From Amoebophrya sp. A120 (Eukaryota; Protista; Dinoflagellata), in NCBI GenBank assembly GCA_905178155.1, contig CAJINV010000001.1:2125572-2189571 (forward strand): 64,000 nt of DNA, written 5' to 3'. Shown here piece by piece: positions 11,890 through 62,153 of this stretch. The position numbers and the translations under genes are program-made. How positions within the stretch are numbered: position 1 is the stretch's first letter; each line of letters opens with the position of its first letter. The notes beneath the pieces were generated by a model. It saw only the letters and a program-made list of their open reading frames with translations, made no database searches and was not told the DNA's origin.

Positions 11890-14800
11890 TTACTTCAAGG
11901 ATCTTAAATGTTGACCAGCAGCAAAATAGTATCGGATTGCGCCGAGGATTTGTCGACCGGTCTTGAGACCACGCAGCACGCGCAACACTCGCTCTACAAG
12001 ATACCAAGACAGGAGGAGTTTGAGCAGAAACACTGTAAACACGCGCATCCTGTTCGAGGGAGCAGCGCCGGTCAGGCCCGAGGACCAGGATCCGCCGTTG
12101 AAAGCAGCGAGCCCCAACTCTTGCAGGTCCGCAAAGGCCCCCCGTAGCACCCACCGCGTCCACCAGGCTCTCACTGGAGCCAAGTATCGAACCGTTTTCA
12201 GGAGCACCGGTGCGAGCTTCTTTAAAAAACCCGTGTCAAACGGCGGCTGAATCGGCGGCAGTAACTCCAACTGCTTCGGCAGCACTTGTCGGTAGCGGAA
12301 GAAGCTCCTTTTGTAGCTGAGCTCCTCAAATCCAAACCGTCCGTGCACGCGCCCGCACCCCGAACGCCGGATGCCGCCGAAGGGCAGATTTTCGTGACCG
12401 AAATAGAACAACGGCGCGTTCTGCATCATGGCGCCCGATTGATGCATTTGTTTTACCGCTGAAATCAGAGCTTCGTCGTAGCCAAACACGTATGTGTTGA
12501 GCGGACTGTCGTGGATCTGGTGGATCAGACCCGCAATCTCGGCGGAAAGCCGTTCCAGCCGGTCGGAGGCAGTCTCGACGGAATTCCGCTCCGTTTCCAA
12601 AGCTTGATCGGCCGAAAAATCGTCGTCGTAGAGGATAACCGGGAGCAACGGGCCAAAAATCTCGTCCTTCAAATATAGGGCTCCCAAGCGTTACATTCTC
12701 AACTGTGACATGAATTTGGCATGCAGAAGCACCATCCTCATCCACGCGATCAAGCTGCTTCGCATGACAAATTTGCCTAGGGCTAAACGGCAGCTAAATC
12801 TGTGCGGCATTTATAATGCTACAGGCGCAATCTCCCCCCTTTCACTTTTCCCATTCTTGCATCACAAATCCATGTATCAGTTGAGAATGTAACAGTTGAG
12901 AACGCCATATCAAAATCGGGTCCTCCATGCTGGGGCCGATCACGAGGTGGAAGGGAAAGTAGCAGCACGTTGGGTGGTAGAGCAGGGCGGGGGAAGTAGT
13001 GGAGCTGGTGTTGTTAGAAGCCGGAGGAGTACCACCTGCAGTTACAATTTCCTCTGCAGTCGTGGTTGGAATCACTATTGCGACTTTGCTTGCAGAAGTA
13101 CTTCTTGCCGACGCGGACGCGGCCACTTCCGTAGAAGCTTTGCTACTACTGGCTGTCGTTGCGGCCCCTGAGGCCGACGTGTTTGGGTGCAGCTGGACAG
13201 TGGTCGCGGATGTAGAGGCAACCGAGGACGCAGAGGACACTTGGAATGGCTGCTCTCCACCGCCTCCGAAGGAGGACAATGTCGCTTGGCTATTTTCCTT
13301 CGAGCTGTTTTTGCTGTTTTTGTTTTCCTTCGCAGAGGACAACTCCTGGGATAGCGGGTTATCCGTCTTCTCCGAAGGAGTACGACGCTGAGACAAGTCT
13401 ATAACCTTCCCCGTTGTTGTCTCCAACATCTTTTGCAGCCTCTTCTGATGGTCTGCGTTAATCACCCGGCCGTAACTGAGACTCGTGTCCAAACCGCTTT
13501 TGTTTAACATCTTGAGGTCTTTCGCAAAAAACTCGTTCTGCACAATGTCGGTTACACAGGCCACAAAGTCCTCCAGCAAAATATCCTGTGCAAAAGTATC
13601 GCACTCGTACTGCAGTCATGCATTACAAATCTTTTTCTTAGGGCAGATCCCCATTACAAACTTTATTTCTCATGCTGAGGAAATTTGTAATGCATTTATA
13701 CGAGTGTGATACTTTTGCAGTTCATACAAAATCTTCGGCAGCAAAACGTAGTCTGGCGCCATGCAGACCTGCCCGCAGTTCTGCAACTTTTGTTTCAACA
13801 TGCGCCGCAACAGCGCCTTGAATTTGTCGTCGTTCTTCGTTTTGTTGTTCTTGCTCCCCGCTGTTGCAGAACAATACACGTCCCCGTCAAAGAGCGCGTC
13901 GTGGAGGAAAATGGCGGGATTTTTTCCGCCCAACTCCAGCGTGACCGGGGTCAAATTGCTGCACACGTTGCTGTTAGACACGACTTTCCGCGCAACGGCT
14001 TCCGACCCGGTGAACAGGATGTGGTCGAAACGGTTGTACTGCAATAGCGCCTTATGCAATACAAACTTCCTGCACATGTACAAAATGCATCACAAATTTC
14101 ACGACGCTAGAGCATGCCACTTGTCATGCTGAATAGAATAGCGAGAAAGTTTTGTCATGCAGAAACCACATGTGTACTAGAAGTGTACAAGTACAACACG
14201 TACAGGAAATTATACCGTGGATATGCCTGCGTGAAGCTCGCATCCCCCTCGAACACCAGCACCGCCTCGGGGTCAACATATTCGGGCAGCACCCGCAGGA
14301 GGAAACTGCTGCTCTGGGCCGCGACTTCGGTTGGTTTCAGCACGCAGCAGTTCCCGCTCGCAATGGCGGTGATCAGACCGTCTAGTAAGAGGCAGATGGG
14401 GTAGTTCCAGGGGGCGATGACCAAAGCCACCCCCTTATCCTGAGTAAAAACGTACCCACACCAGAGTCAGGATGGGGATTTTGCACCACAAACCTAGGAG
14501 CTTTGTGAGTCACGCATGACAAGTTGCAGACCGTAAGGTAGTGCAAGTTAGCAAGTGCAGCCGCGTCACAGATTCATCTGCTCATGCTGTTCACAGCATC
14601 ACAAATTCCAAAACACGACTGCCAATGGCTCTCATGGGGATGCGCATTACAAGTCTTCCTGTCTTTGCAAATCTGCGTCACAACTCTGGTGTGGGTACGT
14701 TTTTACTCAGGATACCCCTTCGGCTCAAACTCGTACCAGGAATTGCCGAACCAATACTCAACTGGCGTTTGGACATGGAACGGTATCCTGGGTAAAAACG

Positions 14801-15405
14801 TCGCTCCCACCCCGTAGTCAAGTAGTTGGGAACTTAGCAACACAAATCCAGAAGTTTTGGGAGCCACGCATGCCAAGTTGCAGTCCGTAGTGTAGTGCAG
14901 GTTTAGGTTAGCAACGGAAATTGCATCACAAATCCATCTGCTCATTCTGTTTTCAGCATTACAAATGCCAAAACACGATTGAAAATGCCTCTATTGGGTC
15001 TGCGCATTACAAATGTTCAGTTCCTGTAATCGCAAATCTGCATGACAACTCTGGGTTGGAAATGTTTTTACATAGGATAACCGGCGCCATCCATTCATCC
15101 AATTCCGCGATGGCCTTGTTCAGAAAAAGCTGGACCGCGATGATTTCCCCCGTTAGCGCCTCCACGAAATGCCGCCCGTGGTCAAATTTCAAACAGGCGA
15201 CGATCTCTCGTTCCTGCTCGGTCAAAAAACGCTGGAGCTCCTTCAGTTGGGCGATCCGGTAGTCATACGACCGCGTTTTTCCGCTTCGGAACGTCTGGTG
15301 TAGGTCGGAAACCCGAGCTTCCATCCGTTTCGACTCGGATCGCTGTCGCAGCAGCTTGTGCGGCGACGGTGGCCCGTCCGAGTGGTTGTTCGGTGAGCTG
15401 CTCAT
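11890..15405 (-). CDS. Aldehyde dehydrogenase, class-3/fatty aldehyde dehydrogenase-like; 6 exons, 5 introner introns
   Basis: After splicing: FRSGKTRSYDYRIAQL, EPKGVALVIAPWNYP, GNCCVLKPTE, FTGS, TLELGGKNP, NCGQVCMAPDY, KDEIFGP, LPFGGIRRSGCGRVHG; hydrophobic C-terminus. Confidence 0.93.
12674..12909. mobile_element. Introner in ALDH
   Basis: DR tcaaa; TIR core gttacattctcaactg; restores MEDPILKDEIFGP. Confidence 0.9.
13582..13726. mobile_element. Introner family B in ALDH
   Basis: DR caaaa; tatcctgtgcaaaagtatc…gatacttttgcagttcata; restores LPKILLED. Confidence 0.92.
14053..14223. mobile_element. Introner family E in ALDH
   Basis: DR cgcct/tgcct; similar to 34009; restores FTQALLQ. Confidence 0.88.
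14436..14714. mobile_element. Introner family C in ALDH
   Basis: DR cccct; perfect TIR tatcctgagtaaaaacgtacccacaccagagt; restores EPKGVAL. Confidence 0.95.
14784..15079. mobile_element. Introner family C in ALDH
   Basis: DR aacgg/accgg; homologous to the adjacent 14436 copy. Confidence 0.88.
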
Positions 15406-16465
15406 GATGTTGATGGCCGAGTCGTCGTGTCGAGGCAGGAGCGGAGGGAGTCAAGGTCTTGGTCAAGCGACGAGATGCAGCGACCTGGAGGTCGTGCAAG
15501 TACCGCCGTGGTCGCAGGAACGATTAAGAAGAAGGATCAGCGGTTGCGCGCCGGGCACGACCGTTTTCAATTTTTGACGCGGTTACGACCGTTTTGGCAG
15601 CATCACCGTACATTCGGTTCTTTGTTTTATTGCCAACCACTAAGTATGATTTTTTCACAAATGGCACTGGAAGACGAAGATATCAGGACGGTCATATCGG
15701 TGGCGCTGAAGTCCGAGATCTAGCATGTGATGAAACGAGGCTTCAACATACTCGAACAAAAGTGATGGTGATGGATCATGCATCATGTAATATTATACTT
15801 ACATAGGGGCGCCGGAGTACGATTCGGATCGGCTTCTGCACGAGGATATTAGCGATACCGCGGGGGAGTGTATTCTTTTTACAAAGTTGAAGGTCATGAT
15901 TAAACTAAAGTGCAGTGGGGGCACGATCCTTCAAGTGACACGAGACGGGGACGGGGTGGAGGGGAAGCTGCTAGAGGTAGAGAGGAAAGAGTGAGCACCA
16001 GCTGTTGCAGTTCCTGACATAAGTTCTTGCGCAATCAATCAAGACACTTTCGCTGGTTTGAATCTTTTCGAGATGTTGAACTGCTTTGAAGAAAGGATCT
16101 CAGAACTCATTGCGCACCGAATTATGCCTACCTTGGTTGCAACACGAGGGAGAGCTCTAGAACACTCATCTGCAAAAAAAAATGTCTACTCAATTCACCT
16201 TGTTGTTGTTCCTTTTCTTATTTACACCTCTTCATACAGAAAGTCAAAATTTTCACGCTTCAGTTCCTAACCACTAAGGAGAGTGATGATTTTTCGTGTC
16301 TTTCTCTTGTTGCGTCGCATTAACATGTCTGTATATAAAAGACGTTCGCGTTTCTTTTGTTCGCGCCACTCGTCCTCATACAGTTTCAATTTGTAGTTTT
16401 CACAATACAAAAGCAAATACTCACTCACAAACATCTACATCTTCGTCATTCGCAAATCAATAAAC

Positions 16466-19400
16466 TCAGTAAACATTTAACAACGCTCGAAACTGACCCG
16501 GAAAGTCTTTCTCTTCGTTGCATTTCGACAATGCAATCCAATCCGCCGCCTCCGCTTCTGTCGTACGAAAATACAGCCGCTGCAACGCCTTCGAAAGCGT
16601 TTCTGGGTCGATATCGCTGTAGGAGTCTCCGGTTGTACGAACTACGCTGGAAGTAGGTGTCGCCGCAGCAGTGTTGTTTGATTTTACAGTAGTTGCGGCT
16701 TTCGTCCCAGGAGCTCCTCCTAGGATCGTACTCGCCGCGCTCGCTAGGTCCCGCGGCGCGGCGTGGTTGACCACGGGATCAAAAATCTCGTCCTATCAAC
16801 TGTAAAAATGTCTGGGTCTGGAAACTCGTGATGCTGGGTGGCGTTTGTTCATGATGAGGCTACAGATGCTGGCTCAGCATGACAAGTTTCTGAGCTCTTA
16901 GGTGTTGCCTATTCTGCATGACAAACTGCGCCTCTGCATCACAGAAAAACGGAGCTCTTGGGTAACGCGCATGACAGATTTAAGAGTCATGCCAGACAAG
17001 CATGACAAACATGAATTCTTCCAGACCCAGACATTTTTACAGTTGATACGTCCACAAATTTCCCTAATTCCCCCGGGGAAACAAACGAGTCGGCGCCGGA
17101 GAGATCCGCTACCAGCGCCTGGGCGTCCTCGACGGAGTAGCCTGCCAGGGCGAGCGGCTCAATCATCCACTCATGCACGTCGGAACCCGTGATCGCGTCT
17201 GTGTTGAAGGGATTTCTTTGATCAGATTCAGATCTTAGACCACATGTATCGTAAAATTATTCATCAATCCATGGAGAGACGGCCTCATCAACCTAACTGG
17301 TGAAAGTTGAAACTCAAACTATTGAGAAGATTTAAGTGCCATCTTTGTCCCGATCCATGGTTCGGAAGAGCGTGCTGTTGCACAAATCCCGAACCAAATC
17401 CGCAAACGGCGAAGGCTGGGGTTTACTTGGCGCGGATACAACGGCAGCAGTGGAGCTGACAGAGGCTTTGTTTTTTCCTAGGAGGTTGACGCTATTTTTC
17501 ACGTTCTGCCCTTGTTGTCCTTGTGCTGCAGACACTAGCTTGGTGGAGGTCGTCTTCGACGTGTTGCACCGATCATTCAAACCGCTTTCTGAGCCGGCTG
17601 GTGATTTCGCGTTTTCCACCGTGGTATCAACTGTGACGCTGGTCTTTACTCCCTTCTTTTGTTCCACTTCAACGCCGTACTTGTGCTCATCTTTCTTTTC
17701 ATCGCTGTTGACCTTCTCAAAGTCCAACTTCGAGACAGAATTCGCGAGTAACGAATTCGCCGAATTTCTGGCACTTACGCGCTTCACCTGTTCCTGCAAC
17801 GGCGTCTCACTAGTCGACTTCACCGAGCGCCGGCCTGTGCTGCTCAGTCGAGCGGAGTTCCGCCCTGCACTTCCCTTCGCGGCGCTACTTTCTTTCACGG
17901 AGATCCGCGCACTTTGTCGACCGCCGGGTTGAGCCGGCACGGCGTTCTCCTTTTCAGACTGGATGCTCTCAGTTGCACATGTTGCTGCTCCATCCCCTCC
18001 TAACTCCGCAGCGAGGTGGACTGGGGCATCACCACCAGCCTCGATGCTCTCGTCTTCCTTCAGAGTACTCAAATCCACTCGAGCGCTCAACCGCGAGGCG
18101 GGCATTGGAGGTTCCGGCGTCTTCACGCTTTTCCTCGGTACTGCACTGCTTGTGTGAGATGAAATCCGCGCTACGGGATTAAAGCTGCCCGTAGAAGTTC
18201 CTGCCAACTTCTTGGCACTGTGGCTTGCACTTTCTACTTCCGGTAGTTCTTTTGAAGCTGCTCCTGTCGACAAATGTCCCTCGGGAATGGCGGGCATAGC
18301 GGCTTTAACACCACTTGCAAAGAGTCGCGGGTTTTTCGGTGTCTGGGAGGATTTTGCTTGCTTCGCCTCCTCCTGTGCTGGACTGGCGGAAGAAACATCG
18401 ACGTAGTCGGGCTCATATGCACTGGAAAAGTATCGCACTCGTAGTAATGGCAGTCCTGCATTGCAAACCAGACTTTCTACCCGAAGTAGCATGACAAGTT
18501 GCATTTTTGTACTTGAGAGAATGTGCCATGCAATTTTTCACACTAGTACGATACTTTTGCAATGCATAGCTCAACGGCCTTCGACACACGGACCATGGCA
18601 GGCGGAATTGACTTTTTTTCTGGGCTATGATCATGCTCTCCTTTCTTCTTCGCAAGATCTTCCCCGTCGCCAACAGAAGACTCACCCGCGTTTTGTAGTC
18701 CCGTAGCTCCTCCTGCACCGCCCTCTCCTGAGCCTGGTTTGGCTGTACGACTAGAAGATTCGTCTGTAGCCGACGACAACGGATGCTGAAGCTCGTCTCC
18801 TGCACAGGGGGAAATATCCTCCTCTTCTTCCTCCACAACCGTTAAGAGGTCCAGTTTCGCCCGCTTGCTTTTTCGCGTGTCGAAAGCGGCTTTATTCATT
18901 CCACGACTATGCTGTCCCTTTTTCGTCTCGCTACCGCTGGTCTCCTCCTCGCCGAAGTCACTCAATGCTTCAGTAGGTGCAGTGAAAGCGCGTGCCAGGC
19001 CTGCGCGCTTCTTGTGACCAGGGGCCAGTTCCTGCGACGATAATTCCGCCTCCTCGTCCTCCTCATATTGGTCGATCGCCCCTAAGTCGTCCGTGGTCGC
19101 CGCACGCAGGATGTCCGACGCGGCTTTTTTCGGTGGCGGATCGGAGGAAACGCGGTTTTTGTCCTTCTGCTTCGCCGTAATCTTCTTGTTGAACAGGCGG
19201 ATGTGCTTTTGCACCATGGACATGCAAACCGTTTGGGACTTGCGCTTGTCGATGGCCGCGGCGTCCACCAGCGGAAGTCCCTCGGGGATCGAAGTGAGGG
19301 GGAGCTGCTGGTGGGTGGACGAGGGTGTAGTAGTTGTCGCGGTAGTGGTGGAGTTTTTCTTCGAGGACTTCCTTGTTTTCGCGGGTGTTAGTGCAGAGGA

Positions 19401-20601: not shown

Positions 20602-21056
20602 GGTTTTTTACGGCTGGAGGTGGACTTTTACAACTCGAGTACTTACTTATCTGATTCCGACAGCACTGATATCTTGACATATATTTATAGTATCATTTTT
20701 GAGCTGCATGTACTATGCCTCCTCTCCGTCCCCCACGCTCGTTTCTTTGTTTTCGCTCAACACGTCATAATACGCCTACAACGCTCCTCTCCACATCTAC
20801 TTACAAGATTGATCATCCCCAGTCACCCGCCACTCATGCAGAGAGATGCCCTTTCCGCTGTTCCGCCCCGGGGGAGTGCGAACAAAAGTCACGCCGTTCA
20901 TTTTTATGTGCGAGTGATTCATTTCTTGAATTGTTCTGCGGCCGCTCGTTTCTTATTCAAAAATTCTACAGCACGCGATGTATTTCTGCCTTTCTTGTTC
21001 CGTGTTTCTTCACGCACTTGCACTATTACGCATTTCGTTCCGCATCTTGCGAGCAG

Positions 21057-27100: not shown

Positions 27101-30100
27101 CTGGGCCGATCAGAAGTACCACCTGGCGCATGTGGTGGTCGCTCTCGCTGTACGCCACCAGCGCCGATTGACAAAGGAAGATTCTTTCGACTCTCTATCC
27201 GCGCAGGAGGACCACGACCAGCATCGCCGGCGGAAGATGAGGGCTGATGTGCAGCGTGAAGGAGCTGCTCTGGACTGCTCGATGACCCACCAACTCCTCC
27301 ACCGACCGCCAGCTCCTTTCGCTGTTGTTCCTTTTGCAGCTCCAGTTCTCGACTTTCGGACCGCAGTCGCGATACGTATTGCTGCAGCCGGCTCTGCTCG
27401 TCCATCAGTGCTGTTAACGCCGTGTTGTCACTCGCGATCTTCTGCAATTTCTCCTTGTACTCTTCCCCGGCCTTCTATCCAGGAAGAAAAACCCACCCCC
27501 ATTCATTTTTTGCATGGCAAACATTATGGAAATTATGCATTTTTTGCATGACAAATTGGATGGGGGTGGGTGTTTTTCCCTGGATACCTTCTTCGCTGTC
27601 TCCACGTCCTGCGCCAGTTGCTGGTCCCGGAGCGCGACCAGCTGCGCGGTCTGCAGTTTCAAATTCTGCACCTCCTGGGACAGTCGTTCCTTCTCGTGCC
27701 GTTTCTCGTTCATAGTCTCCTCCATCTGCTTCTTACTCTCACAAATCTCCTGCTTCGCCTCCTCGAGCTCCTTCTGCGTTTTCAGTTGCTCCTCCTTCAG
27801 CTTTTCTAACAGCGCCAGTTGGTGTTTCTTGTCCTCCTTGTACGTTTTCTCCAGCTCTTCCAATTCCTTTTCCCGCTGCTCCACGCGGTTTAGCGTCGCT
27901 TCCTCCCGCTGCTTCCACTGCTTCACGAGTTGCCGCCGCTTCTCCTCCTCGGTCGTGTCCTCGTCGAGTAACAGGCGCAGTGCTTCCTGCTTCCGCTGCA
28001 CCTTCGCGTCTAACTCTTCAAGCGTTTTCTTCCGCTCTTTCTTCTCATCCTCAAACTGCTCCCGGAAGGATTTCCTTTCGTCTTCCAGATTTTCCCGGTG
28101 CTTTTCCAAATCTCTCTCCCGGTCCTGCAACTTCTTGTTCAGCGCCTGCAAATCCTCTTTCGCCCGATTCAGATCCTTCTCGACCGATAATTTGCTATTC
28201 CTTATTTTCCCCTCGAGTTCCTCTTTTTCGTTCCGCATAGTTTGAATTTCGGATTTCACCGTGGAAATTTCCGCACTTATTTTGCCCTTTTGCGCCTCCA
28301 AATTGTGGATCTCGTTGCTCTTCTTCAACCGCACCTCTTCCAGCGCGGCGACGTTCGACTGCGTGTCCATCGCTGCTTGTTTGGCCTCCTCCGCGGCCTG
28401 CTGCTTCTTCGTCAAATCTTCCTTCAGCTGCGTGCGTTTCCGGGAAAGATCCTCGAAATCCCCCTTCGCGGCGGCGAGCTCGACTTTCTTCGAGGACAAA
28501 TCTCTGTCTAGGTCGTCCACTTGTGTCCAGATAGTTGTCCTCTTCCGTTCCAATTCCAAAATCTCCGCACTCAACACTTTCGCTTGGTCCTGCTCGATCT
28601 GGTTCCGCAAATCTTCGTGCCGTTTCCGCAAATCCGTCATCTCCGCCGTTCTCTTGCTCGCTTCGGTCTCCATCTGGATCTTCTTCGCTTGCAGGTCCTG
28701 CAAAGCTGTGGTGTGGCTGAGCTTCTCGATTTCCAGTTCGCCTAGGGAATTGGACAACTCGATCTTCGAACTTTCCAACCGGTGCAGCTCCTGTTTCAGC
28801 TCCACGCCGCGCGCGTGCTTGCGCTCGTTCTCCGCCACCTGCTGCTCGTACTGACCGGTCAGGGACTCGATGCGCTGCATCAGCACACTCGCCTCGTTTG
28901 TCATGGTGGTCACGTCGGCCCGGGCGTTGTCGCTCTTCTTAGTGTAGGCTTCAATTTCCGCTTCCTGCTCCTCGACGCGAGATTCTTGCTCTTTGACCTG
29001 ATAGAAAAGAAACGAATGCAACAGTTGTAAGTAAGTACTTCCGTGTGCTTCTCCTTTTCTGCACCTGCTGTAACCGTAGATGTGCTGGAGAACACAATCT
29101 CATTCCCTGTGTCTATTTCATGCAAAAGAAAAAAAAAGTCATGTAATTGATGCAACACAAAAGAGCGAAACTATACCTTCTCCTTCAGCTCCTCGAAATG
29201 CTTCTCCAGCTCTTCGTATTCTTGTTCTAATTGCTTATTTCCTAATCCGAGTTTGTTTATCCTCTCCTTGGTTTCCTGCTTTTCCGTCTCCAAGTGCTCT
29301 AAACTGTATCAAAGGAAAAAAGTGTTACAGTTACACATTTGTTGGAATTCTAGCATCACAAGTTGCTCTGCATGGCAAAAGTAATGCGCAGACTATAAGG
29401 GAAAACACACGCGAAATGACGCTAGCAAGCTCAAGCATTTCCTGCATGACAGAGGTTGTCTGTCTTGCTTGTCTTGCGTCAGGGTGTGTAACTGTAACAC
29501 TTTTTTCTCACGATAAACTGCTCTGCAGCTCCACTGCTTCCTTCCGCATTTCCTCCAGCTGATTCTGCTTCTTGTCCAAATTTGCATCAACAGCCGCCAT
29601 CCGCTCCTTCCGCTGCTCAAACTGCAGCTCAAATTCCTCGAATTTGTTTGCTTGCTCCGCTTCAATTTTCTGCTTCTCGAAGGAAATTTCCTGCAGTTTT
29701 TCCTGCATTTTTCCCAACTCCTCCTCCGCTTCCGTTCTTTTCCCATTGATCGCTTCCGTTTCTTCCTTGAATATGCATTGCAAATGTATCTGGGTCTGGA
29801 AGAGTGCAAGCTTGTAATGCGCACTTCATAACACAAAAAAGTCTCTCATGCATAGGCAGCAAAAGTTGCCCTCTTTCTGTCACCAAAATGGGGCATTTGT
29901 CATGCGGATTCGGCATTGCGCAAGCTTTTCGAAATCTGTAATGCTAGAGCTTCCATGCTATACCTTCTGTGTCATGCTAAAGCAGCATGACTCTTCCAGA
30001 CCCAGACATATTTGCATTTGATATTCAATTGGTGGATTTTATTTTCCTCCTCCGCGTATGCCTCGACCGCCTTCGACAGCATGGCCCGCTGCATCTCCAG

Positions 30101-46400: not shown

Positions 46401-48843
46401 TGGACTGGGGAACAACGACCGACGCATCATGGGTTTTACTTTCATCTAGTACACCTGATGAAGCAGACCACGCCGCAATCTTGTTTATGTTTTGCCCGGA
46501 TCTTGAAGAGGCTCTTGCAGCAGCCAGAAAGTGTTCCTTCGCCTTCGCCAAAACATACTCCGTGTCGTCCGGAATCTGTACATTGAAGAAATCCTGGTTT
46601 CTCGCATACAAGGCCGGGTAGACAAACAAGTTCTGTCTCTTGTCAAACCAGGCCTGCGCGGCGTGCTGCTTCACCGTTGACCGCAGCGCGTCCGCCCGCT
46701 GCTCGGTCAAAAAGGGCAGGGACAGAAGTGCGGCGTCGATGTAGGTGAGAAAGCAGAGCGTCTTTTCCAAAGCATCGGCCAGGGTAAACCGGTAAGGGAC
46801 CGCTAGGAAATAATTTTCTATTTCTTCTTGGTCGTGTCGGTGGTCTACTGCTCGTGGTGGCTCACTTGAGGTTGACGCCACTGCTGCAGCTGATGTCCTG
46901 CTTCGTCCGGCAATTGAATCTTCACGCTCGTGGTGCTCGAAAGCGAGAATCCGGACTGTCTTTGACTTTTTCTTCTTTTTCGACGAACTCTTTTTCTGTC
47001 TTTTCACCGAGTGTTGCGATGTTGTTGATGCGTTTACCTTTTCGATATTGCCTTTCTTGGAAGTACTTGCAGCAGGAGCTTCTTCTTGTCGTTCAACATC
47101 AACCTTGACTCTCTTCTCCGAGACGATCTTGGTCGTTATCGTCTTCAGCACCTTCCCTGCACTCCGGGTGAAAAATACCTGCGGAATCACGTGCGCGTGG
47201 CGGTCGTCCCGCTGCTGGCCGCCCAGGAAGGCGTGCTCAACGTTGTTGTGGATACTGACCCGCGGGGCGGAAAACGGGTAGTTGCGGTTGAACCGGACTT
47301 CCACGTTAAAAGTCAAACCGGCATAGTAGTGCATCATCTTATGAAAGTGCGAATAAACTCCCCCTCTTCCACCTCATTTGTCATGCTTAGCAGACTGCGC
47401 GACTAAAGCCCTGGGGGGTGCGGGGTCCGAGGGGTGCACTGAGCACTGCCCGGAACACCCGAACATGCCCCGCGACTGGCACAGGACCAGCAACACAACT
47501 ATTATCGTCGATCTCAGTTTGTCGATCACAACGTAGCTGCGAAGCCGTCCATTCATTTGTCATACAAAGTCCCAACTCCAATTGCTACCTTGTGGCGCAC
47601 CTGTTTGCGTTGCAAACTCTGGAAGCCCAAAGCCAAACAGTAGGACTACACTTCTCAGCGCAATAAACTTGTCATGCACAGCGTCCACATCATGTGTTGG
47701 CGTTTGTATTGCTGTTCGTGCCTTACAAATGACAATGAGCGGTGTGGGTAGCTGTGGACTCTGATACATCTTCTCCCGCCACCACTCTGTGATGATCGGC
47801 CGGTTCTTGCCCGCAATCCTCGTGTATCCTGTGCAAAAGTATCGTACTCCTACTCGTACTAAAACTAATCGCAATCACGCATCACAAGTGAGTCTCCTTG
47901 TGAAGCTGAATCCGGCACATGACATCAAGCTCTATTTGTCATGCTGAGCTAATTTTGTATTGCGGAATTACTATTTCTAGTAGCACGTCGGTACTTCTGC
48001 AATTCATATCGTGGTCGTGCTCGGGTTTCCGTTTTTCCGATTCCGCTCCACGACCGTGAGAAACTCGTTCGTGTTCCGGTTCGTGTACCCCGGCTCGGGG
48101 ATCTGTAACGAGAACCGGATCGCCCACGGTCCGGTTTGTGGCGTCCCGGATTCCGTCACGTCGATCATGGCCGGGTTGCCGTTCATGCTGACCGCTCGGT
48201 ACCGAACCAGCTCGTAGGACCGGGGAATGAAAAGCTTCCGCAGAAGGGAGTGGCTCGCCGGGGAATTATCTTCATCATTTTCGGGCTTCTTGTCCTGCTC
48301 AGTGCTATTTGTTGTACTTGAAGTAGTTCTGGGACGAGGACGAGTCGAGAAGATTTCCAACAGCTCTCGGCCCATCGCCTCCACCGCGATTCGCGCGTCA
48401 CCGTGGTCATCGTCGTAGTAGATCTCAGCGGAGGACTTCGTCGTTCGTTCGGCCTCGAACAGCCGCCGCATCTCGTCGGCCGGGCATTCCGCGGTCTCCT
48501 TGCAAACTGCCCGGATCTCGGCAAAGTTATACTGCCAGTCTTCGCTTGCTGAAGAGGATGGGGTCGGCGGGGACGATGCCGCAGAAGCAGACAAGGTGGA
48601 TTCTTGTGATGAACCCGAACTGGCTGCGAGGACCGTCGTCGTCGACTGAAAATGAGCCAGCCAATAAAGCAGGTGAAGGGTTCTTACCAGCAAGAGCCCC
48701 GGCAAAGATGAAGTCGTGTATGCGAAGCTGCCACCACGACGGGGTGATCCGGCACACATCTTCCGCGACTGTTGTGGTCCGCCCATCCTCTCTCTTTGAT
48801 GTCCTACGTAGAAAGACGAACCTGCGGTGGTTAGACAGTTCAA
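43470..48843 (-). CDS. UBC/UEV-like domain fused to OGFOD2-like 2OG-Fe(II) oxygenase; 11 exons, 10 introners
   Basis: Spliced: GLTFNVEVRFNRNYPFSAPRV…; VYSFPLFTDEFCD; RPNSMNNYG; HLDMHTDDSDVTINI (HxD); HLGRHRHGA (distal H); ERMNLILW; CVSYTHDRDY; AEYDNFQEE-stop. Start codon uncertain. Confidence 0.85.
43504..43755. mobile_element. Introner family A
   Basis: DR ctctt; near-identical to 16794. Confidence 0.95.
43864..44086. mobile_element. Introner family D-like (TGT left end; GT-AG compatible)
   Basis: DR cacct; TIR caagaaaaaaaactgtgt; restores PDKVCVSY. Confidence 0.9.
44190..44473. mobile_element. Introner family C
   Basis: DR tccgc; restores GERMNL. Confidence 0.92.
44516..44673. mobile_element. 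Introner family B
   Basis: DR gtgcc; restores GRHRHG. Confidence 0.93.
44846..45097. mobile_element. Introner family A
   Basis: DR tgtcc; restores HLDMHTD. Confidence 0.93.
45283..45541. mobile_element. Introner family A
   Basis: DR tgggt/tgggc; perfect TIR tatgcagtgcaaatatgtctgggtctggaa; restores QRPNSMNNY. Confidence 0.93.
45608..45845. mobile_element. Introner family C (diverged)
   Basis: DR gcaga; restores DEFCDL. Confidence 0.88.
45895..46103. mobile_element. Introner family D-like
   Basis: DR aacca; TIR gaaaaaactgtttcactgtga. Confidence 0.9.
47340..47766. mobile_element. Introner, weak TIR
   Basis: DR catct; TAT…ATA ends; internal ttgtcatgc motifs; restores REKMMHYY. Confidence 0.75.
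47825..48008. mobile_element. Introner family B
   Basis: DR tcgtg; restores STTTRIAG. Confidence 0.88.
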
Positions 48844-49573
48844 TCAAGGGTATTAATCAATAAAGCAAATGCTGATATTGTAGCAGCGTCGTCCAGTCCT
48901 CTTCGTCTTCCTGGTTGTTGTACAGTCACTCATGTTTCGCAGCACGACGTGCTGGAGGCACGGAGGCACTATAAAAGACGATGGTCGGACTCGAATGTCT
49001 TTGTCGTGCTGATATTGGCAGCATGAAAGCAAGGGGTACAAAGGGGCTTTTTTCAGGGAAAAAGCGGGGGGCTGCCAAAGGTCGTGGATGTGGAACATCA
49101 CCAGACACGACTGACACAATAATTCATAATTATAAGAAGCTGAAGCTGTAGTACTTTCTGCTTGTTTCAAATTCAATGTCTGCTCTTCTACAATCACTAC
49201 TCACAATCCGGTGTGCTACTGTTTTTCTCACGTTCGGCTCTTGAGTCTGCTACGAACAAAGACAAAGACTAAACCTTTTGAAGAAACGTCAGAATCATGT
49301 CGAGTGGTCTAAGTACTTGTCCTTACTTGTTGCAGTTGAAACACAGGGCGGGCTGTGCTCTGGTCATTTTAATTGCGAACGCACTTTTATCTCTTCTGTT
49401 GTGATTTTGCTTTGTTCTCATTGGTTGGCTCGTCTTCCTTCGCAAGAACTACAGCAGGTTCAATTTACAATTACATTGAAATACGTGGGCTCTTCATCAC
49501 GTGAGTAGGGTGTCCTCGCCGGTTCCCTGGAATGATGTCGGAGTACTACATGCTCCACGCGCCACGGGTCCCG

Positions 49574-51116: not shown

Positions 51117-54100
51117 CTAATTGGGGTTCGCCGCGCTCAGCGAATTCCGCAGCATCCACTTCAGCTGAGCGCGATTTTCCTTACCGGCGACCTTTTCCCG
51201 GATCGTTGCGGTGACTTGTCCAAGCACTTTGAAGAGGTAATTTGGCACGAACTGGAGCTTTTCCTGAAATTTTCTTTCCACGTCGGAAAGCAGCTTCGGG
51301 TCCTCCAGCTTTTTCTTGTTATGCATCGCAAAGTGAAGCACTGTGGCTAATGTCAAAACGCAGCACAAGAAAGCAAAGCTGCAACAAAGCAGACGCAATC
51401 CATCGGAAAGAGGCGGCGGCTTTTCTATTTCCAAACCCCCGCGTCCCCACTGAATCCGCGCCAAAATATCTGAGCGCGCGGGGGTCATTCTGCTCGCGAG
51501 AAAATGAGCAAGAGCGCAAAAGCTGCAGCGTTATTGGCGCGACTGACGCGCTTCATTCTGCCGATTCGATGAGGGGCCCGAGGAATGGCGTCGCCTGTTT
51601 GAAATAAAAATATTTGGCAACGTCTAATTACCACGGTGCTTAATTTTGCAGTGAATACTTGACGTCCTCGATCAATTTCTTCCCACTTTGGGCGATCGCC
51701 GTCGGTGTCGGCATACACCACATTTTTGTTCCTTTGGTCGGATCCTCAAAGCTCTTCAGCACTTTCATGCGCGCGTCAGAATCTTTGCCGCGAACATGAT
51801 CCGGGAACAACAGCTCCAGGAGCACCAACCGCACGGCACGACTATCCGCGTCCATTTTCGACGTCGGCAGGTGGAGACTCAGTTGCCGATGATCACGCAG
51901 CTTCAGGTGCACGCTGTGCATGGGATTGTACGAAACCAGAATCGCGTACGCCACATCGTTCATCAGGTCCCCCAGCCGGACGTCCAAAAACACGCCAAAC
52001 TCCGAGGCGGCCACTTTCCAGAAGGACCGCAAGGGCGCCACGACGAGCCCGCCGATCGCGACCCCCCCGAGGCTGATCCCGGAAAACAGTGCCAGGAGGG
52101 GGGTGATCACGCGCTTCTCGAAATCGTCGATGATCTTGTCGCTCACTTCGTTGGGGCAGACCTCCCCGCTCTTGTCCGCGTCCAGAAAACTGATAAAGAG
52201 CGCCAGGTGCGAGGACATAAGTGCGGACACGAGGCGCGGGACGTTGCGCACAAGAAACTCTTCCGCCACCTTCAACAGCTCCCCCGCGCCCTTGTAAATT
52301 TTCTTTTTCACCGACTTATACAGCGGCGACAACACGTCGTTTACGAGACCTGCGAAATTCAGCTCCAATACGGGCATGCGGACGAATCCATATGCAGTGC
52401 AAGAGCATTTACATATTTGAATTTGTACGGATTGCAACACAGCATCAATACAAGCTAAATCGGCCTTTTTTATACCAATCAATTTCGTCTTTCATCAACT
52501 TGGGAAAGTAATCATTATCATTTGTGATGCCATAAATTTGACTCTTTGTCTTTCCAGGACCAGGAGTACGAAATAATACTAACTATAACTTACTTTTGCA
52601 CATTACATAATCCAGAGTTTGCGATTATTTGCGCCTTGGCTTTCAGCCGGGGACAGCCGAGCGCTACAGAGATCTGTTCCGACAACTTTGCGCACTTGTC
52701 GAAGTTATCCCCTACTGTCCAAGCCTCATTGTCAAACACCCACTCGCACTGCTTCATTTTACCCCCCTCGCCCTTTTGCATGCTATCCCGAGAAAAAAGA
52801 GCTACAGCTACGCATTTTTTATTGCAATTTCAGCAGCACAAACAGGGAAAGTAAGTTTGCAATGCAGCGACCCCCCCCCCTAAGGGTGGAAAACACGTAT
52901 GAAACGAGGGTCGCAAGCATTTCTGGCATGACAAAGGTAAAGGCTGTCTGTCTTGTCTAATTCCGCAACAAGATCTTCACAAAAATGTGTAAAACTGTAA
53001 ACACTTTTACTCAATTTTCCTCGCATACATGCCCTCTGTGATCGAGTGCGCCGCTTCCGCCGTGGCCAGGAGCTGCCTCACGCGCCCCACGCGATCGACG
53101 TTGTGGAAGTGCCAGGGCCGAAATTGACAAAGTCGAAAAATTTGCGATGCACAAAATCGATGTCAGTTGGTGGAGCCTCAGTTTCCAAGTGGCGCATGAC
53201 ATAAACAGACTGTGCAACACGAGGTGGCATTGTGTTTCGGGTGATTTGATCAACCCAAAGACGCCGCCACCCCGGGCCCAACGGACCTGGCACTCCAAAC
53301 TTTCCTCCTCACACACACGCCTCCAAGTGGCGCATGACAAATTTCGGGAGCCTCATTTGCCTGCTCCCAAATACAGGCCTTCAGTAACCTACATTTTTTG
53401 CATCGCATATTTTTCGACTTTGTCGATTTCGATCCTGACACATCCATAGACGTCGTCAACACTGTAACAGGATTGCTTCAGCTTATCGTATCCAATGCAA
53501 ATATGTCTGGGTCTGGAAGGTTGCAACTTGTTATGCTGAGTCTGGATCATGCAAAAACTTCTGTTGCATGATTACCAAAAGATGTCCGCTTTTGACCAGT
53601 TTGACAGGGAGTTTTTCATGCAGGATAGGCACGACAGACACCTTACAGCATCTCTCATGCTAGGTGCTGCATGCCAGGCCTCATGGGTCATGGAAAACCT
53701 GCATCACAAATCTTGCATTCTTCCAGACCCAGACATATTTGCACTTCATATATCGTAGGCCGTGACAAATTCCGGCACAGCCGAATGTGCTGTCGCATCA
53801 AACAGCTCCAGCATCTATGCATTGCAAATATGTCTGGGTCTGGTATGGTATGAGGCTTTCGCCCTCCAGGCACATGGAATGCAAAGTGCAAAGGACGCTG
53901 GGTCTGCAACAAAGGTTGAAGCTGTATTGCGTGTTTCGCACATCTAAAAAATCATACTTAAGTAGCACATAAAGCGCCACACTTTCGTCATGCAAAAGCG
54001 CAGTTTGCAATGCGTTCTGCGCTTGAGAAAAAGGTTGAAAAATTTGTCCTGCTGCACTGCACCTACAGGCACAGTCAATCATGTTGACCATTCAGCATTA

Positions 54101-57100
54101 CTCGCGCGCAAGGCCCGTAGCAATAGTTATTGCGTGCGAATTTGAAGGAAAAAGGAAACAAAGGAAAAAGGAGAATTTTATTTTGGAGTAGTTGAAGTGT
54201 GTTCTAAATTGTGATTGTGTAATTACAACATACAAGTTCCCAGACCCAAACTAGTACATATTTGCGTTTGATAGCATCGTCGAACCAACAACATGTTCTT
54301 CACCTTCTGGTTCCTCCGCTGCTGCTGGTGTGCTCGTCCACCACCAGTCGTCGTATCACGAGAAAAAAGTGTTACAGTTACACATTTGTTTGAGCTTCTG
54401 CATCACAAATTTTCGCTGTGTGACAGGGAAAACTTGCAATGCGAAGATTATAAAGGGAAAACAGGAAGGAAACGAGGCTTCCAAGCATTTCCTGCATGAG
54501 AAAGGTTGCCTGTGTTGCCGGTCTTGCAACACAATGTGTAACTGTAACACTTTTTTCTTGCGATACGTTGAGCTCGAAGTCTACTACCTCCTGCGGACCA
54601 GCAAAGTAGAGACCAGCGTGTCCTCCTCGTGCGCGAGAACCTTCTTTCATCCACATGCTTCCCGGGGGCGCACGCGCACGACGAGGAAACCGATCCACTA
54701 CTTCGTCGCCGACTTGCAGCACCGTGACCCCTTTCTCCCGCTGCTTGGCCTTCTTCTGTTCCCGGTGAAAGGAAGCCCTCACGAGCCCCTGCAGCTCCGT
54801 GAGCAGCTTCGGGTTTGCAATCTGCCGGCGCAGCACCGTTCTCACTCGCATCATGACCGCGTAAAGCTCGGTGCTCTCCATCTTGGCCAGCATTTCGTAC
54901 ACCCTCGGATCGAGTTTTTCAACTAATTTTCGCTCGCTGAGTGGCGTGCGCAGAATCTTCTTGGCGCTCGCAGCCAGGTCCTGTGCCCTGGCTAAAAGCG
55001 CCGCCGGGGTGATTATGCACCACATTTTCTGCGTCCCCTCCCGGAACCGGTCGGGTTATCAAAATCAAAAATCCCCCCTCCCCATATTCAAAACGACGGG
55101 TCTGATGTTGTCGGAACTGCGTACACAAATAAGGGATCGCTGCTGGACGATTCTCAGTCTGCGCAGGCGAGTTCGAGTCTAATTGCTTCGCATGTTGGTA
55201 CTAGTGAACGGCTGCCCTGTAGTACTAGCCCCAACAGCATGAAGATAAATCGCTTCCATAATGGGGCGGAAACCCCTGCTCTTGCCTTCTTGCTGATTTG
55301 TGGCCACAGATCAGCATCACAAATTTCCATTTTGAGCACTCATGGGACGAAGGGGGAACTTTTCCTCATGGCACGAGTGCGGCCTTCCCGCCGTCCTCCT
55401 TGCCACGCACCGCGTCCGGGAAAAGCAGTTCGAAATATCACGCAAAAAAAATGACTTCCAGCACTGTGACGCATTTAGTGCAGCAGGATCTACTGCGTCA
55501 CAAGGTTGTCGCAGCACATGACGAAAGAAATGCAAATCTACTTTCATGCGTGCATCCCAACATTGGCGGATGATGAATATAACACATCTTTCTAAAATCA
55601 ACAATCCGTTGCCTTGCACTGGTAAGAGGAAAAACTACACTGCTGCACCCTTGCACGACGCTCTCCTGTATGTACAACTGCTTCATGATAAGTTTTTTTA
55701 CAGTGAAGCAGTACTTTTTTTTGACGATACGAAAAGTACGAGTTGCATTATGTCCGTTGTGGCCGCTCCCAGTTTCGCCACAACGTTCCCAGTTCCACCA
55801 TGATGATGATCATGATGATGCCGGTGGTGGTGGTGGTGGTGGTGGTGATGATGGTGGCGGTGGTGGTGGTGATGATGGTGATGATGATGATGGCGATGAT
55901 GGTCATGATGATGAGGATGATGGTGATCACCATTCCTACCACTACTTCCCCCGCCCTTGGCGTCCAGGGCGAAAACGAGCGTGCGCGAGACTTCGTTCAC
56001 CACGTAACCCAGGCGGGTGTCCAAAAACACCGCAAACTGGCTCGCGGCCACGTTCCACAAGCGACGCAGGGGGGACGCCACTAGTTCGCCGACGGGAAGC
56101 GGCCCCAGTTTCACGGCCCCGAACGCCTCTACCAGCGGGTCGATCACGCGGGCCTCGAACTCTTCCAGCACTTTCTGACTGATCTCGTTCGGGCACACTT
56201 CGCCGCTCCCATCTACATCTAACATGTCGATAAACATGACCAGATGGGAAGACAACAACGCCGATATCAGGGGCGGGATGCGTTGGCTGAAAAAGTTGCC
56301 CACTTCGTCTTTGAGGTGCTCTATGGGGTGCAGCATCTTGTTCGTTTGTTTCGAAAAAAAGTCGGCAGCCGATGTCCACATGTCGGAAGTAGTGCTGTGT
56401 AGTGTCTTGCGCGGTGGTGGTCGCTTGTGCGGTCGCGTTCGTTCTTCCGGTGGCGTCGTCGGCGCGCGTCGAAAGCCAGCGGCAGTCGTCATGTTGTGCC
56501 ACTTTTCGGTCACCCATTTTTCGACGCCTTCCTCTCCCTCCCTGCGCGCCATGAAAGAGGAGGCGCTGCCCCCGGAGAACATCGCACCCATTCTTTCCAG
56601 GAGCGGCTTCATGAGGTCCCGCACAAGTCCCCCGAAGTTCAGTGCGTGCACGGGGAGACGGATGTAGCCCGGCCGGTTAATGGCGCTTTCTCCGGCGGGC
56701 ACGGGCTCGCACCCTATCTCCACCGAAACTTGATCGGACAGCTTCGCACACTTCTCCCAATTGAGGTGATTTGTCCACGCTATGTTGTCAAACACCCAAG
56801 AGCACGCGAGGTCCTGACCCATTCCCTCCATACAATCCGCGCCTTGAAGGTCGCAGTCGCCAGATGCGGATACTCGCACGCGTGCGGTCGCGATCATTTC
56901 CCGGGCTCGAGACAGACGTCCTACGTCGTCGTTTATCGTGTAGCACTCTTTCTGCAGCTTTTCGTACGTCACCGCAAACGACTCAACGTGCTCGTCAAGG
57001 TGCAGGTTGTTGTCCGCGCTCTCCTCCAAGTTCTTTTCTTCCCCTCTGCTCTCCGCAGTTTCGGTTTTCCCCTGCCGATCCGCTTTGATGCCTCCCTCCG

Positions 57101-59421: not shown

Positions 59422-62153
59422 TCACTGCACACCGCACCCGGCGTCCAGTTCGGGTTGCCCCTTGCGCTTCCGCAAGATATTCCGCATCTCCAGGAGTGTA
59501 CCGGGCTGTTGCCGCAGAATCACGTTGGTGAAGGTGGTATCCAAGAAAAAAAACTGTGTATAGTGTAGGTCTTTTCTTTGGGAAAACAGCATCACAAGTT
59601 TGTCTGCCATGACAGGCAAAACTTGTGATGCGCAGATACGAAGGGAAAACACATAGGAAGCGAGCCGATCATGTACGTCGAGCATGACAAGTGTAAACTG
59701 TTTTGCATTTTCTGCATCACAGATTTACACTTAGTACACACTTTTTTTCTTGCATAGGTGGCGGGGATGTTGCCCTTGAAGTCCAGCGACGAGATGTAGG
59801 TTGCCTCCGTGTTCCCCCGCCCATTATGCACCGAACAAAGTGGCACAGTTACACATTGTGTTGCAAAACATGCAAAACAGACGACCTCTGTCATGCGATA
59901 AATGCTTAGAGGTCTCGTTTCGTGTGCGTTTCGCCTTATGAATATGATCTCTGCATTACAAGTTTCCTCCGTCATGCGAGGCAAATTTGTGATGCTGAGA
60001 ATTCAATACAAATGTGTAAGTGACACTTTTAGCCTTGGATACCCATCCGCCTTCAGCCAGTAGCCGCTATGCAAGCCTCAGCATGGAAATTCTCATCAAA
60101 GTGGATGAGCTAATTTGTGCTGCATGAAATGCGACACCAAAAAGACTGCATTGCAGAGAACGCAATGGAGGTCGACTATTGTGCGCCTACTGGTTCAGAA
60201 TTGGGCTCCTGGTTAGCACGAGAGAAGGGCACCCCTTTGCCTAACTAGCATGACAGACACGCTTTGAGTGCCCGGGAAATTTGCCATGCGCCGACTAGAA
60301 ATGGTGCTTCAACTGGAGTCGTTTTTTTGCATTCCAAATTATAATTATTTTCACTTTGGGATTTTCCACCCTGAGGCTTTCATAGCCGCATTCCCGGAGT
60401 TCCGCCCGTACGACCCCCGGTTTTTCCGGGATCTATCAGATGCAAATATGTCTGGGTCTGGAAACTTCTGATGCTAAAATGTGGATGATGGAAACAGTTC
60501 CGAATGCAACCCAGCGTGACAACTTTCCAGAACGCGTTCTCATAGGCAATCCGCATGAGAAGCTGCGTTTTTGCATGTCTGTGCAAAAGAGGCTGCGACT
60601 TTTGTTGGTCTATGCAATATAGATTTTCTAAGTATGGAACGCTAGCCTTACAAGTTCCAACCTTCTCCAGACCCAGACACTTTTGCAATCCATAGGATCG
60701 CCTCGTCGGCCACCGACTGCGCCACCAAAACGCAGCCAAAGTCCGTCGGGTGCCACGCTCGCAGTAGGCACAGGTCCCGCGGCTGCACAAACAGCGCGCC
60801 CTTGTACGCCAAGTGGGCCAGATCGCACCCGGCTGCTTGCGTTGATGTTCTTGTTGATGCGCGTGTATTAAGAACTGCGTCGTTGTGGGCTACTGTGGTC
60901 GACTGTTCATCTTTACCATCATCTCCGCCTGCTGCGCCTTCGTATTGCACATGAACCCTGCCATACTCCATCTGCGAATCCCAGAGTTTCCGGCGCTCCA
61001 AATCCACGATCAGTCCCAGGATCTCCGCCGGCTCGGTTTCGGGAAACACCAAGCGTCCACGCACCGCGATGATGTCGTCTATCAAAATGAAAAATCTCCC
61101 CTCCCCATATTAAAACGGAGATTTGTGTAGCATGATTTGTGATCACAAGTGGCGTTGTCATGCTAGAAGGGAAGAGATTCGGATTGTATTGCTGGCTGGC
61201 GCAGGAATGGAAAGCCTTGCGTCTTCAGCATGACTATGACGGCAGTAACGTGCCCAACCCCTAACTTACCCATGGGGGATAAAAAAAAAATTTCGGTTTA
61301 TCTTATATAGATAATATAGATATTTATATAAGCTACCTAGTTGAAATAGATATATAAGCTCAGTAGCTAGAAAAGGCGTTTTTGAAGGCTTCCACGACGC
61401 TACTCCGCCGACATCCAGCCTTCAAAAACGCCTTATATACATAAGCTATTAAGCTAACTAAAAACAAAGCATTTTCGCTAGCTATTTAATATATAACTAC
61501 CTTATTTACACCGAAAAAAAAAAACTGTATCCCTTTGGGTAACTAGCCTGTTGGGCACGTTACTGCCGTCATAATGACAAGAAGCAACTGGAAACGGGAA
61601 ACAGCGTGACAAATTGCCTCCAAACGAGGTAGCAACCGCGTCTCTTGGCCTTCTGGCAATACAAAGCGATTTTTGTACTCAAATACAGCAACACAAATTC
61701 CGTTTTCGATATGGGGAGGGCGGATTTTTCTCCACAATATCGTCCCCGACGTATTTTTTGCCGACGTACCGAGCGATCTCGAGTTTTTCGGCGGAAATCC
61801 TATTGTTCAAGGGCTTGGCGCCAGAACTCGATGAAGTAGAACTAGTTTGTTTTTCGCCGCTCTGGAGCACCATCCAGTCATCGTAGGATTCCGCTTGTTT
61901 CTCCAGTATCCTGTGCAAAAGTATCGTACTCGTATAAATGCTGGTCTTGCATTACAAATTTCTTTGTCAAGGCAAATCAGCATTACAAATTTTATTATTA
62001 TTTCTCATGCTGAGAAAATTTGTAATGCATTTATACGAGTTGTACGATACTTTTGCAGTTCATATCCAGAAAATCCAGGCAGCCCTGACGAACGGCCGCG
62101 AATTCGGGAGACAACGCGGTGCTGATGGGGTTCGTGCTGGTGGGAGGAGACAT
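59422..62153 (-). CDS. START (lipid-binding) domain protein; 7 exons, 6 introners
   Basis: Spliced: DDWMVL, DDIIAVRG, RKLWD, VQPRDLCLLRAW, SVADEAIPEKPGVVRAELRECGYWLK, LDFKGNIPATFTN. Confidence 0.85.
59538..59756. mobile_element. Introner family D-like
   Basis: DR ggtgg; similar to 43864; restores IPATFTN. Confidence 0.9.
59825..60041. mobile_element. Introner family D (inverted relative to 29307)
   Basis: DR cccat; restores KADGRG. Confidence 0.87.
60068..60384. mobile_element. Introner family F (inverted relative to 41291)
   Basis: DR gccgc; restores RECGYW. Confidence 0.92.
60434..60694. mobile_element. Introner family A
   Basis: DR ggatc; restores EAIPEKP. Confidence 0.92.
61235..61573. 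mobile_element. TIR element nested inside an introner
   Basis: Perfect 24-bp TIR tatgacggcagtaacgtgcccaac; DR atgac. Confidence 0.9.
61266..61542. mobile_element. AT-rich MITE-like segment, possible third nesting level
   Basis: ttaccca…tgggtaa ends; flanks ctaac/ctagc; internal 18-bp IR aaggcgtttttgaaggct (61373-61390 / 61417-61434). Confidence 0.55.
61907..62064. mobile_element. Introner family B
   Basis: DR tccag; close to 44516; restores LDFLEKQ. Confidence 0.93.

Follow-up and report, generated by a model that had tools for sequence, protein, structure and literature searches.

Within a 64,000-nucleotide stretch of the Amoebophrya sp. A120 genome (assembly GCA_905178155.1, contig CAJINV010000001.1, positions 2,125,572 to 2,189,571; hereafter the window), short introner-like elements bounded by terminal inverted repeats (TIRs) and a 5-bp target-site duplication (TSD) share an internal motif, GCAT[CGT]ACAA, that is confined to the elements, recurs in both orientations, is conserved above the surrounding interior and is spaced in phase with the DNA helix. 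The arrays formed by this motif, in its fuller profile GCAWBACARR, are read here, at a probability of roughly 0.55, as binding sites on double-stranded DNA for a single protein used in common, most probably a trans-supplied transposase acting through its DNA-binding part. The wider data set consisted of the window and 157 loci (464,664 bp merged) of one other assembly (JACKZZ01 contigs); these loci were retrieved by a family-0 TIR pattern, and family 0 is therefore over-represented, with one of its TIRs selected.

Confinement and conservation of the motif

Within the window, GCATCACAA occurs 15 times on the plus and 6 times on the minus strand, GCATGACAA 21 and 14 times, and GCATTACAA 11 and 5 times, giving 72 matches to GCAT[CGT]ACAA over both strands compared with 2.01±1.37 (maximum 6) in 100 dinucleotide shuffles. 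The variant with A in the middle, GCATAACAA, was found on the minus strand only, three times. An earlier sequence-only reading had noted that the motif recurs, often several times and in both orientations, in most elements and looks rare in exons; the pattern was confirmed and proved stronger than claimed. All 13 of the positions it quoted are genuine (10 exact starts; 43917, 53333 and 61948 shifted by 1; 41388 the end of a match at 41380), and one further strict match, at 2834, precedes the range it had given.

Elements were called automatically wherever TAT…ATA termini had arms that matched and were flanked by a 5-bp duplication with at most one mismatch, other TSD lengths lying outside the scope of the scan. 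The window yielded 38 candidates in this way, and two Markov nulls yielded 0 and 1. The 37 elements kept (9,163 bp) contain 64 of the 72 strict matches. The 8 beyond them comprise 7 in four elements bounded by hand and one, at 55314, in an element whose right end is degenerate. In the final tally all 72 matches lie in 42 elements (10,527 bp) and none in the remaining 53,473 bp, where relaxed GCAWBACAR copies number seven. Because the five hand-set borders were drawn after the matches were known, 64 of 72 is the non-circular figure for confinement. A strict copy is present in 36 of the 42 window elements and a relaxed copy in 38.

The second assembly contributed 357 further elements, with the strict motif at 8.0/kb inside and 0.64/kb outside, the latter figure likely including elements that were truncated or escaped calling, since 83 of 491 TIR-like ends had no partner. 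Of the resulting 394 elements, 370 group into 13 multi-copy families and 24 are singletons. All 13 families carry the motif, and with families weighted equally the top interior 8-mer is GCATGACA (10.8 of 13). Sites matching the profile occur at 26.8/kb in the interiors and 0.3/kb in shuffles. Every one of the 370 multi-copy-family elements has a position weight matrix (PWM) site, with a median of five, and the number of sites rises with element length (r=0.63) at a density of about 1 per 50 bp.

In each of the 13 families, conservation was higher at motif columns than elsewhere in the interior (0.90 vs 0.62 in family 0), values that are somewhat inflated by the definition of motif columns on consensus sequences. 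Private changes at motif columns numbered 638 against 1,446 expected in a context-matched comparison, a ratio of 0.44 of the interior rate. When the sites were masked, similarity above all 200 shuffles persisted in 6 of 78 family pairs (5 of 78 under heavier masking), which leaves 7 clusters. The description of the families as otherwise dissimilar is therefore mostly right, apart from the six pairs that are homologous outside the motif, and the common ancestry of the families is visible in part and probably goes deeper. The motif survives this masking and is kept in all 7 clusters, which argues against plain homology between families as its explanation; it was retained as the rest of the elements diverged.

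Spacing, recognition and competing explanations

Spacings between sites, a feature absent from the sequence-only reading, were measured for pairs on the 13 family consensus sequences. Same-orientation pairs lie 31-33 bp apart in 17 of 80 cases (null 2.7), and opposite-orientation pairs lie 15-17 bp apart in 15 (null 3.4). The cosine sum at 10.5 bp is 30.1 vs 1.9±6.5 (p=0.0004, or p=0.013 without the 30-34 bp pairs), is negative at 11 bp, where the signal is lost, and in a period search over 8-14 bp the best value was 10.4 (p=0.0015 after search), the period of B-DNA. With one family per homology cluster, phasing held at p=0.001 in 8 of 8 draws (20 possible). The flanks of neighbours 31-33 bp apart are 32% identical, and recent tandem duplication as the source of the 32-bp spacing was ruled out on this basis. 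Spacing in family 0 is held though element length spans 232-324 bp. Distance from the ends, which the earlier reading had suggested checking, is also structured: the outermost outward-facing sites are concentrated 32-34, 41-44 and 52-56 bp away from the end, with a phase to the end at p=0.004. The first site of family 0 lies at 33 bp in 51 of 166 elements and at 41-42 bp in 85, with 13 in between.

The elements have no fixed orientation to their host genes, families 0 and 1 lying both ways round (32 against 45 and 14 against 15, with strand calls in the second assembly based on open reading frames (ORFs)). Across 179 elements with an assigned gene strand, the mRNA bears both versions of the motif in 152, only one in 12 and only the other in 15. 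Were inverted copies to pair as stems, complementarity of the variable base would be expected; the outermost inverted pair has it in 62 of 191 cases vs 84.5 permuted, pairs 46-50 bp apart in 77 of 230 vs 106.5, and pairs 33-34 bp apart in 34 of 77 vs 32.1. The period, the occurrence in both orientations and the lack of consistent stem complementarity jointly suggest recognition on double-stranded DNA. The proposal of a binding site for one trans factor gains indirect support, the motif being conserved, shared across families with dissimilar TIRs and phased, with a binder of double-stranded DNA favoured; no factor was identified.

A 300-bp coding stretch, 96% identical between the window and locus L118 of the second assembly, contains a family-0 element with its 5-bp duplication in L118 and a single empty copy of the target at 10294-10298 in the window. 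Summed contig depth in run X1 reaches tens of thousands on elements vs about 30 on unique DNA, although this is not a copy number. Between 43.0 and 48.3 kb, 10 of 10 elements, in both orientations, are skipped by exactly their length plus 5, by one contig per run in runs X3-X6, whose contigs were called transcript-like with RNA status guessed (2 samples, 1 study). The unit removed is the element together with one copy of the duplication. Long ORFs lie mostly on the minus strand, where extended frames reappear once each element is deleted together with one duplication.

From these observations we infer that the arrays are bound by a protein, that only one protein is involved and that this protein is the transposase. 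Such a protein would coat the element cooperatively, through same-orientation sites three helical turns apart (31-33 bp) and opposite sites 15-17 bp apart, and its catalytic domain would be brought onto the helical face of the TAT terminus by the outermost outward-facing sites, whose distance to the end is about 33, 42 or 53 bp. A cut at the TAT end and a 5-bp staggered insertion would then leave the 5-bp duplication. Because recognition would rest on the arrays and TAT, the rest of the TIR would be free to drift, giving rise to many TIR-distinct 'families'. The ends would be the main guide in a distinct later process, the removal from RNA of the element with one duplication. Mobility is ranked first on two grounds: subterminal motifs are known to be bound cooperatively in miniature inverted-repeat transposons (PMC1636448, PMC6188088), and supplement 8 of PMC12130899 lists an A120 family with integrase-like similarity as having a '5-bp TSD, TA/TA termini'; the main text of that paper describes the same integrase-like element as lacking Ginger homology, termini and TSDs.

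Several observations weigh against the transposase reading. The 0.53 Mb examined (the window and the second-assembly loci) yielded neither a transposase nor an autonomous element, the long elements examined having cargo without a recognisable ORF and no Gypsy-integrase-like transposase ORF, and PMC7789003 likewise reports none in A120 and regards general mobilisation by a transposase as ruled out. Orientation to the host gene is skewed in family 2 (4 against 15, p=0.019), family 7 (0 against 5) and family 8 (5 against 0). Pairing is favoured in some comparisons, with complementary variable bases (position 5) in 88 of 201 pairs at 15-17 bp vs 79.7 permuted (12/1000) and covariation of position 10 in 134 pairs at 46-50 bp vs 116 permuted (0/1000), the mixed signs likely reflecting subfamily structure, and interiors have a slight folding advantage over shuffled sequence (mean z -0.9/-1.3). 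Common spacings of 18, 34, 39 and 48-49 bp fall off the 10.5-bp lattice, and the 33/42 split in family 0 may represent one historical indel. In contrast to Emigrant, the motif resembles the TIR only loosely: TIR positions 4-13 agree with it at 5.3 of 10 positions, where 3.8 would be random, and the figure is 6.8 for family 0 and 7.2 for family 1. In addition to the inflation of the conservation values, the motif is still constrained among the closest copies (ratio 0.43-0.53 for pairs differing by 4-10%), a finding equally consistent with a host role, through selection acting on every copy once it has inserted, although the closest pairs probably span unsampled rounds of transposition.

The alternative that survives best, while still unlikely, is that a protein bound to the arrays on the DNA, perhaps a transposase DNA-binding domain that has become domesticated, flags the intron for non-GT-AG excision during transcription, either as its sole role or in addition to mobilisation. 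Every signature of double-stranded DNA recognition applies equally to such a mark, as does the constraint among closest copies, and it is further favoured by the exact removal of the element at 47340-47766 despite its poorly matching TIR arms, by the absence of any GT/GC-AG register within the duplication in 155 of 169 elements, by the location of all 40 top-level window elements in long ORFs and by the report that U1 small nuclear RNA was undetected in A25 and A120 (PMC7789003). Against it, the older, TSD-mismatched copies have decayed further by similar amounts in motif columns and elsewhere (+0.017 and +0.020, with large noise), as neutral decay after insertion would predict, and the 4 of 42 window elements that have no relaxed motif copy all lie beyond the 43.0-48.3 kb excision set. 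We know of no precedent for a DNA-level intron mark.

A reading of the motif as an RNA-level signal appears quite improbable, whether the motif is taken for a bidirectional element of branch-point type, for an enhancer of splicing or for stems in a folded intron that a nuclease or RNA-binding protein recognises. The presence of both versions on the mRNA strand in most elements, the capacity of inverted copies to pair, with the weak positive covariation at 15-17 bp, the mild folding excess and the use of a paired end motif by the non-conventional introns of Euglena (PMC12501133) would all be compatible with it. However, neither strand's version is required, as seen from the 12 and 15 elements with only one, variable bases are mostly mismatched in the would-be stems, and the period is 10.4 bp and gone at 11. 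A branch point should be strand specific and keep a fixed distance to the 3' splice site; the motif lies in elements of both orientations, and its distance to the 3' end takes no single value. There were no Rfam matches in the window, and the motif is unlike the branch-point consensus. The bidirectional branch-point-like signal offered in the sequence-only reading is thus disfavoured.

It is more doubtful still that a host chromatin or architectural protein binds the arrays, as a bending, wrapping, silencing or repair mark that the elements exploit, with the mobilising enzyme reading only the TAT ends. The helical phasing with A-rich 3' flanks, the steady density of sites and the failure to find a transposase in 0.53 Mb are in keeping with this, but a general host factor should also bind beyond the elements, where in the window strict copies are absent and relaxed ones few. 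Plain descent of all families from one ancestor with an internal repeat, the motif being a functionless relic, would account for the six homologous family pairs and for a likely deeper ancestry invisible to the masking test, but is largely refuted by the slower change of the motif, its retention in 7 clusters without detectable interior homology, the dissimilar flanks of 31-33 bp neighbours and the spacing held across family 0 lengths.

The transposase reading and the intron-marking alternative could also both apply, in that one DNA-binding protein reads the GCAWBACARR arrays, moves the elements and marks them for exact non-spliceosomal removal. This dual role is rather improbable, a little behind marking as such, but if true would represent a transposon-derived, DNA-encoded intron-definition code permitting tens of thousands of exon insertions in a genome without detectable U1. 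The movement and splicing of the tens of thousands of non-canonical introners of Amoebophrya are described as open questions in the available text of PMC7789003 and PMC12130899. A motif common to all families would make the 1,954 reported A120 'families' clients of one machine, two sites 32 bp apart would provide a concrete DNA bait for that machine, mutations of which could separate mobility from splicing, and the motif could serve as a family-independent detector of such introns in Syndiniales assemblies.

Elements of the window and their gene context

Across the 394 elements, the ends are TAT..ATA in 370, TGT..ATA in 3 and TAT..ACA in 1 (the scan being seeded on TAT/ATA with 1 mismatch), and the TSD is an exact 5 bp in 330, up to one mismatch having been allowed. 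Across families the TIRs have in common mainly TAT and an A-run at positions 11-15. In most families the left and right TIRs mismatch at approximately positions 4-9 and pair at 1-3 and most of 10-30, forming a recurring bubble beside the element ends that may have a bearing on the RNA cut. All 40 top-level window elements lie in minus-strand ORFs of at least 150 codons, which span 74% of the element-free DNA, and none of the 40 is intergenic or in a canonical intron. Ordinary MITEs (miniature transposable elements with inverted repeats) show the reverse placement. In the following, the strand of each element is given as '.', and motifs are strict copies unless relaxed copies are specified.

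The leftmost element, at 2771-2979, is a hand-bounded TIR element with a degenerate right end and 1 strict motif, and matches an element in locus L003 at 91%. A minus-strand aldehyde dehydrogenase gene at 11890-15450 is broken by five elements. This interval holds a family 7 element of ~236 bp (12674-12909, 2 strict motifs), a family 1 element of ~150 bp (13582-13726, 2 motifs), a hand-bounded family-1-like element with 3 strict motifs whose left TIR opens with TAT and a relaxed motif copy (14053-14223), and two family 3 elements, at 14436-14714 (~279 bp, 3 motifs) and 14784-15079 (4 motifs). Downstream are a family 0 element of the 252-262 bp class with a perfect 30-bp TIR and 3 motifs (16794-17048), a family 1 element with 1 motif (18416-18568), a family 8 element of ~110 bp with 1 motif (27476-27586), a family 2 element of ~209 bp with 1 strict and 4 relaxed motifs (29307-29515), a family 0 element with 2 motifs (29772-30023) and a family 1 element with 3 (34009-34159). 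A candidate at 33440-33869 had a score of 6, under the later threshold, and was removed.

The family 0 element at 37600-37831 (2 motifs) is skipped exactly, by 237 nt, in X3, and both of its junctions are kept in X1 contigs. DNA-level removal, of the kind seen with internal eliminated sequences, was therefore unsupported at this element, rare excision being invisible in contigs. It is followed by a family 0 element at 39250-39515 (2 motifs), a family 6 element of ~307 bp at 41291-41595 (2 motifs) and a family 0 element in reverse orientation at 41679-41930 (4 motifs).

The interval 43280-49073 is a single gene with 10 introners in ~4.5 kb and exons down to 38-53 nt, and has a weak ubiquitin-conjugating-enzyme match under the curated cut-off. 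Each of the following elements is excised exactly, by the length in nucleotides given: family 0 at 43504-43755 (4 motifs; 257 = 252+5); family 2 with a TGT left end at 43864-44086 (2 motifs; 228); family 3 at 44190-44473 (3 motifs, all 6 PWM sites in the same orientation; 289); family 1 at 44516-44673 (3 motifs; 163); family 0 in reverse orientation at 44846-45097 (1 motif; 257) and at 45283-45541 (TSD with 1 mismatch; 264); family 3 at 45608-45845 (2 motifs; 243); family 2 at 45895-46103 (1 motif; 214); the hand-bounded element at 47340-47766, whose TIR arms match poorly (2 motifs; 432 = 427+5); and family 1 at 47825-48008 (2 motifs; 189). TGT replaces TAT at the left ends at 43864 and 53102, and the former element is nonetheless excised exactly. 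In run X9 (2026 raw RNA, same species label), only 8 reads, all partial, fall on the window, at the family-0 TIR at 45066-45098, and supply no evidence at the level of raw reads; one loose read end shows the motif within an otherwise different flank.

To the right of this gene lie singleton elements at 51320-51657 (no strict or relaxed motif) and 52391-52609 (1 motif), a hand-bounded family-2-like element at 52784-53027 (1 motif), an element with a TGT left end and a family-6-like TIR at 53102-53448 (1 motif), a family 0 element at 53489-53750 (1 motif), a long element with family-0 ends at 53816-54273 (0 strict, 1 relaxed), a family 2 element at 54354-54565 (1 motif), a hand-bounded family-4-like element at 55058-55370 (1 motif; right end degenerate and its position approximate) and a singleton at 55436-55729 (no strict or relaxed motif). 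Further family 2 elements are located at 59538-59756 (3 motifs) and, in reverse orientation, at 59825-60041 (2 motifs), followed by a family 6 element at 60068-60384 (0 strict, 1 relaxed) and a family 0 element at 60434-60694 (no strict or relaxed motif). The family 4 element at 61080-61739 (1 strict, 4 relaxed) contains a nested TAT…ATA element at 61235-61573 with its own 5-bp TSD, an AT-rich, partly palindromic core and no motif, the insertion point of which adjoins a motif-like site of the host element. The last element belongs to family 1 (61907-62064, 3 motifs).

Among the second-assembly loci, elements at L024:505-1608, L032:632-1465 and L064:571-1051 have normal ends and arrays with unrelated cargo in the middle, resembling Pack elements. 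Long elements with family-0 ends at L007:8473-9727 and L065:3862-4492 have in common an interior of ~250 bp with 70% identity and frame-shifted similar ORFs; no homologue of this interior was found, with only summed-repeat WW-type matches, and it could represent cargo or a relic of the parent element. A search of viral contigs for the paired motif gave 53 matches, none in a TIR element and 28 in ORFs of at least 200 codons, mostly Ala-Ser-Gln repeats, and was rejected.

Comparison with known systems

The window elements appear to match the published introner type of Amoebophrya A120 in their TIR form, border repeats, removal from transcripts mostly without GT-AG and repeated families. This anatomy was the ground for placing the host in Amoebophrya, a protein search having returned no homologue. 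The same inverted repeat, consisting of TAT, seven less-conserved bases and an A-run, is described for A120 introners, along with short direct repeats, non-canonical borders and co-oriented genes (PMC7789003), and the lengths in supplement 8 of PMC12130899 (~108, 149, 209, 252-261, 278, 305 and 319 bp) match the window families. As far as the searched text and supplements of these two papers extend, image figures and files 13-14 of PMC12130899 lying outside the search, they contain no mention of a shared internal motif, its conservation or its phasing.

Of the other systems compared, Ginger2/TDD elements likewise have TIRs, with TSDs of 4 bp, or 5 bp in TDD-4/5, as here (PMC2836005). Two window elements have the TGT left end, and the published A120 family with TA/TA ends and a 5-bp TSD is placed under Ginger in a supplement of PMC12130899. 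However, Ginger ends are TGTNR, whereas here TAT stands at both ends in 370 of 394 elements with TIRs of ~30 bp, and since the text of PMC12130899 also denies its element Ginger homology, termini and TSDs, the window elements were not filed under Ginger. The ends of IS607-family transposons carry several subterminal repeats that nucleate a cooperative protein filament on the transposon end, a similar arrangement, but these use a bacterial serine transposase and, unlike the window elements, have neither TIRs nor TSDs (PMC6188088). Euglena non-conventional introns are similarly abundant, non-GT-AG and paired at their ends, but through a CAG/CTG-type border pair rather than an internal phased array, and no 5-bp duplication rule is described in the available text (PMC12501133).

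The closest parallel for the arrays lies in the subterminal repeats of TIR transposons and MITEs, such as Emigrant, whose subterminal motifs are bound cooperatively by the Lemi1 transposase, and the hAT and CACTA elements cited with it, in which short internal repeats likewise occur in both orientations near the ends (PMC1636448). The window elements resemble MITEs in being short, non-coding and of high copy number, with TIRs, TSDs and a conserved internal motif at set positions. They differ from the Emigrant type in that the motif fills the whole element and spans families with unrelated TIR bodies, in that the elements are exactly spliced, and in that the binder of the motif is here putative. 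Introners and subterminal repeats are both already known, whereas the papers that could be searched yielded no description of the internal motif shared by these introners or of its helical phasing.

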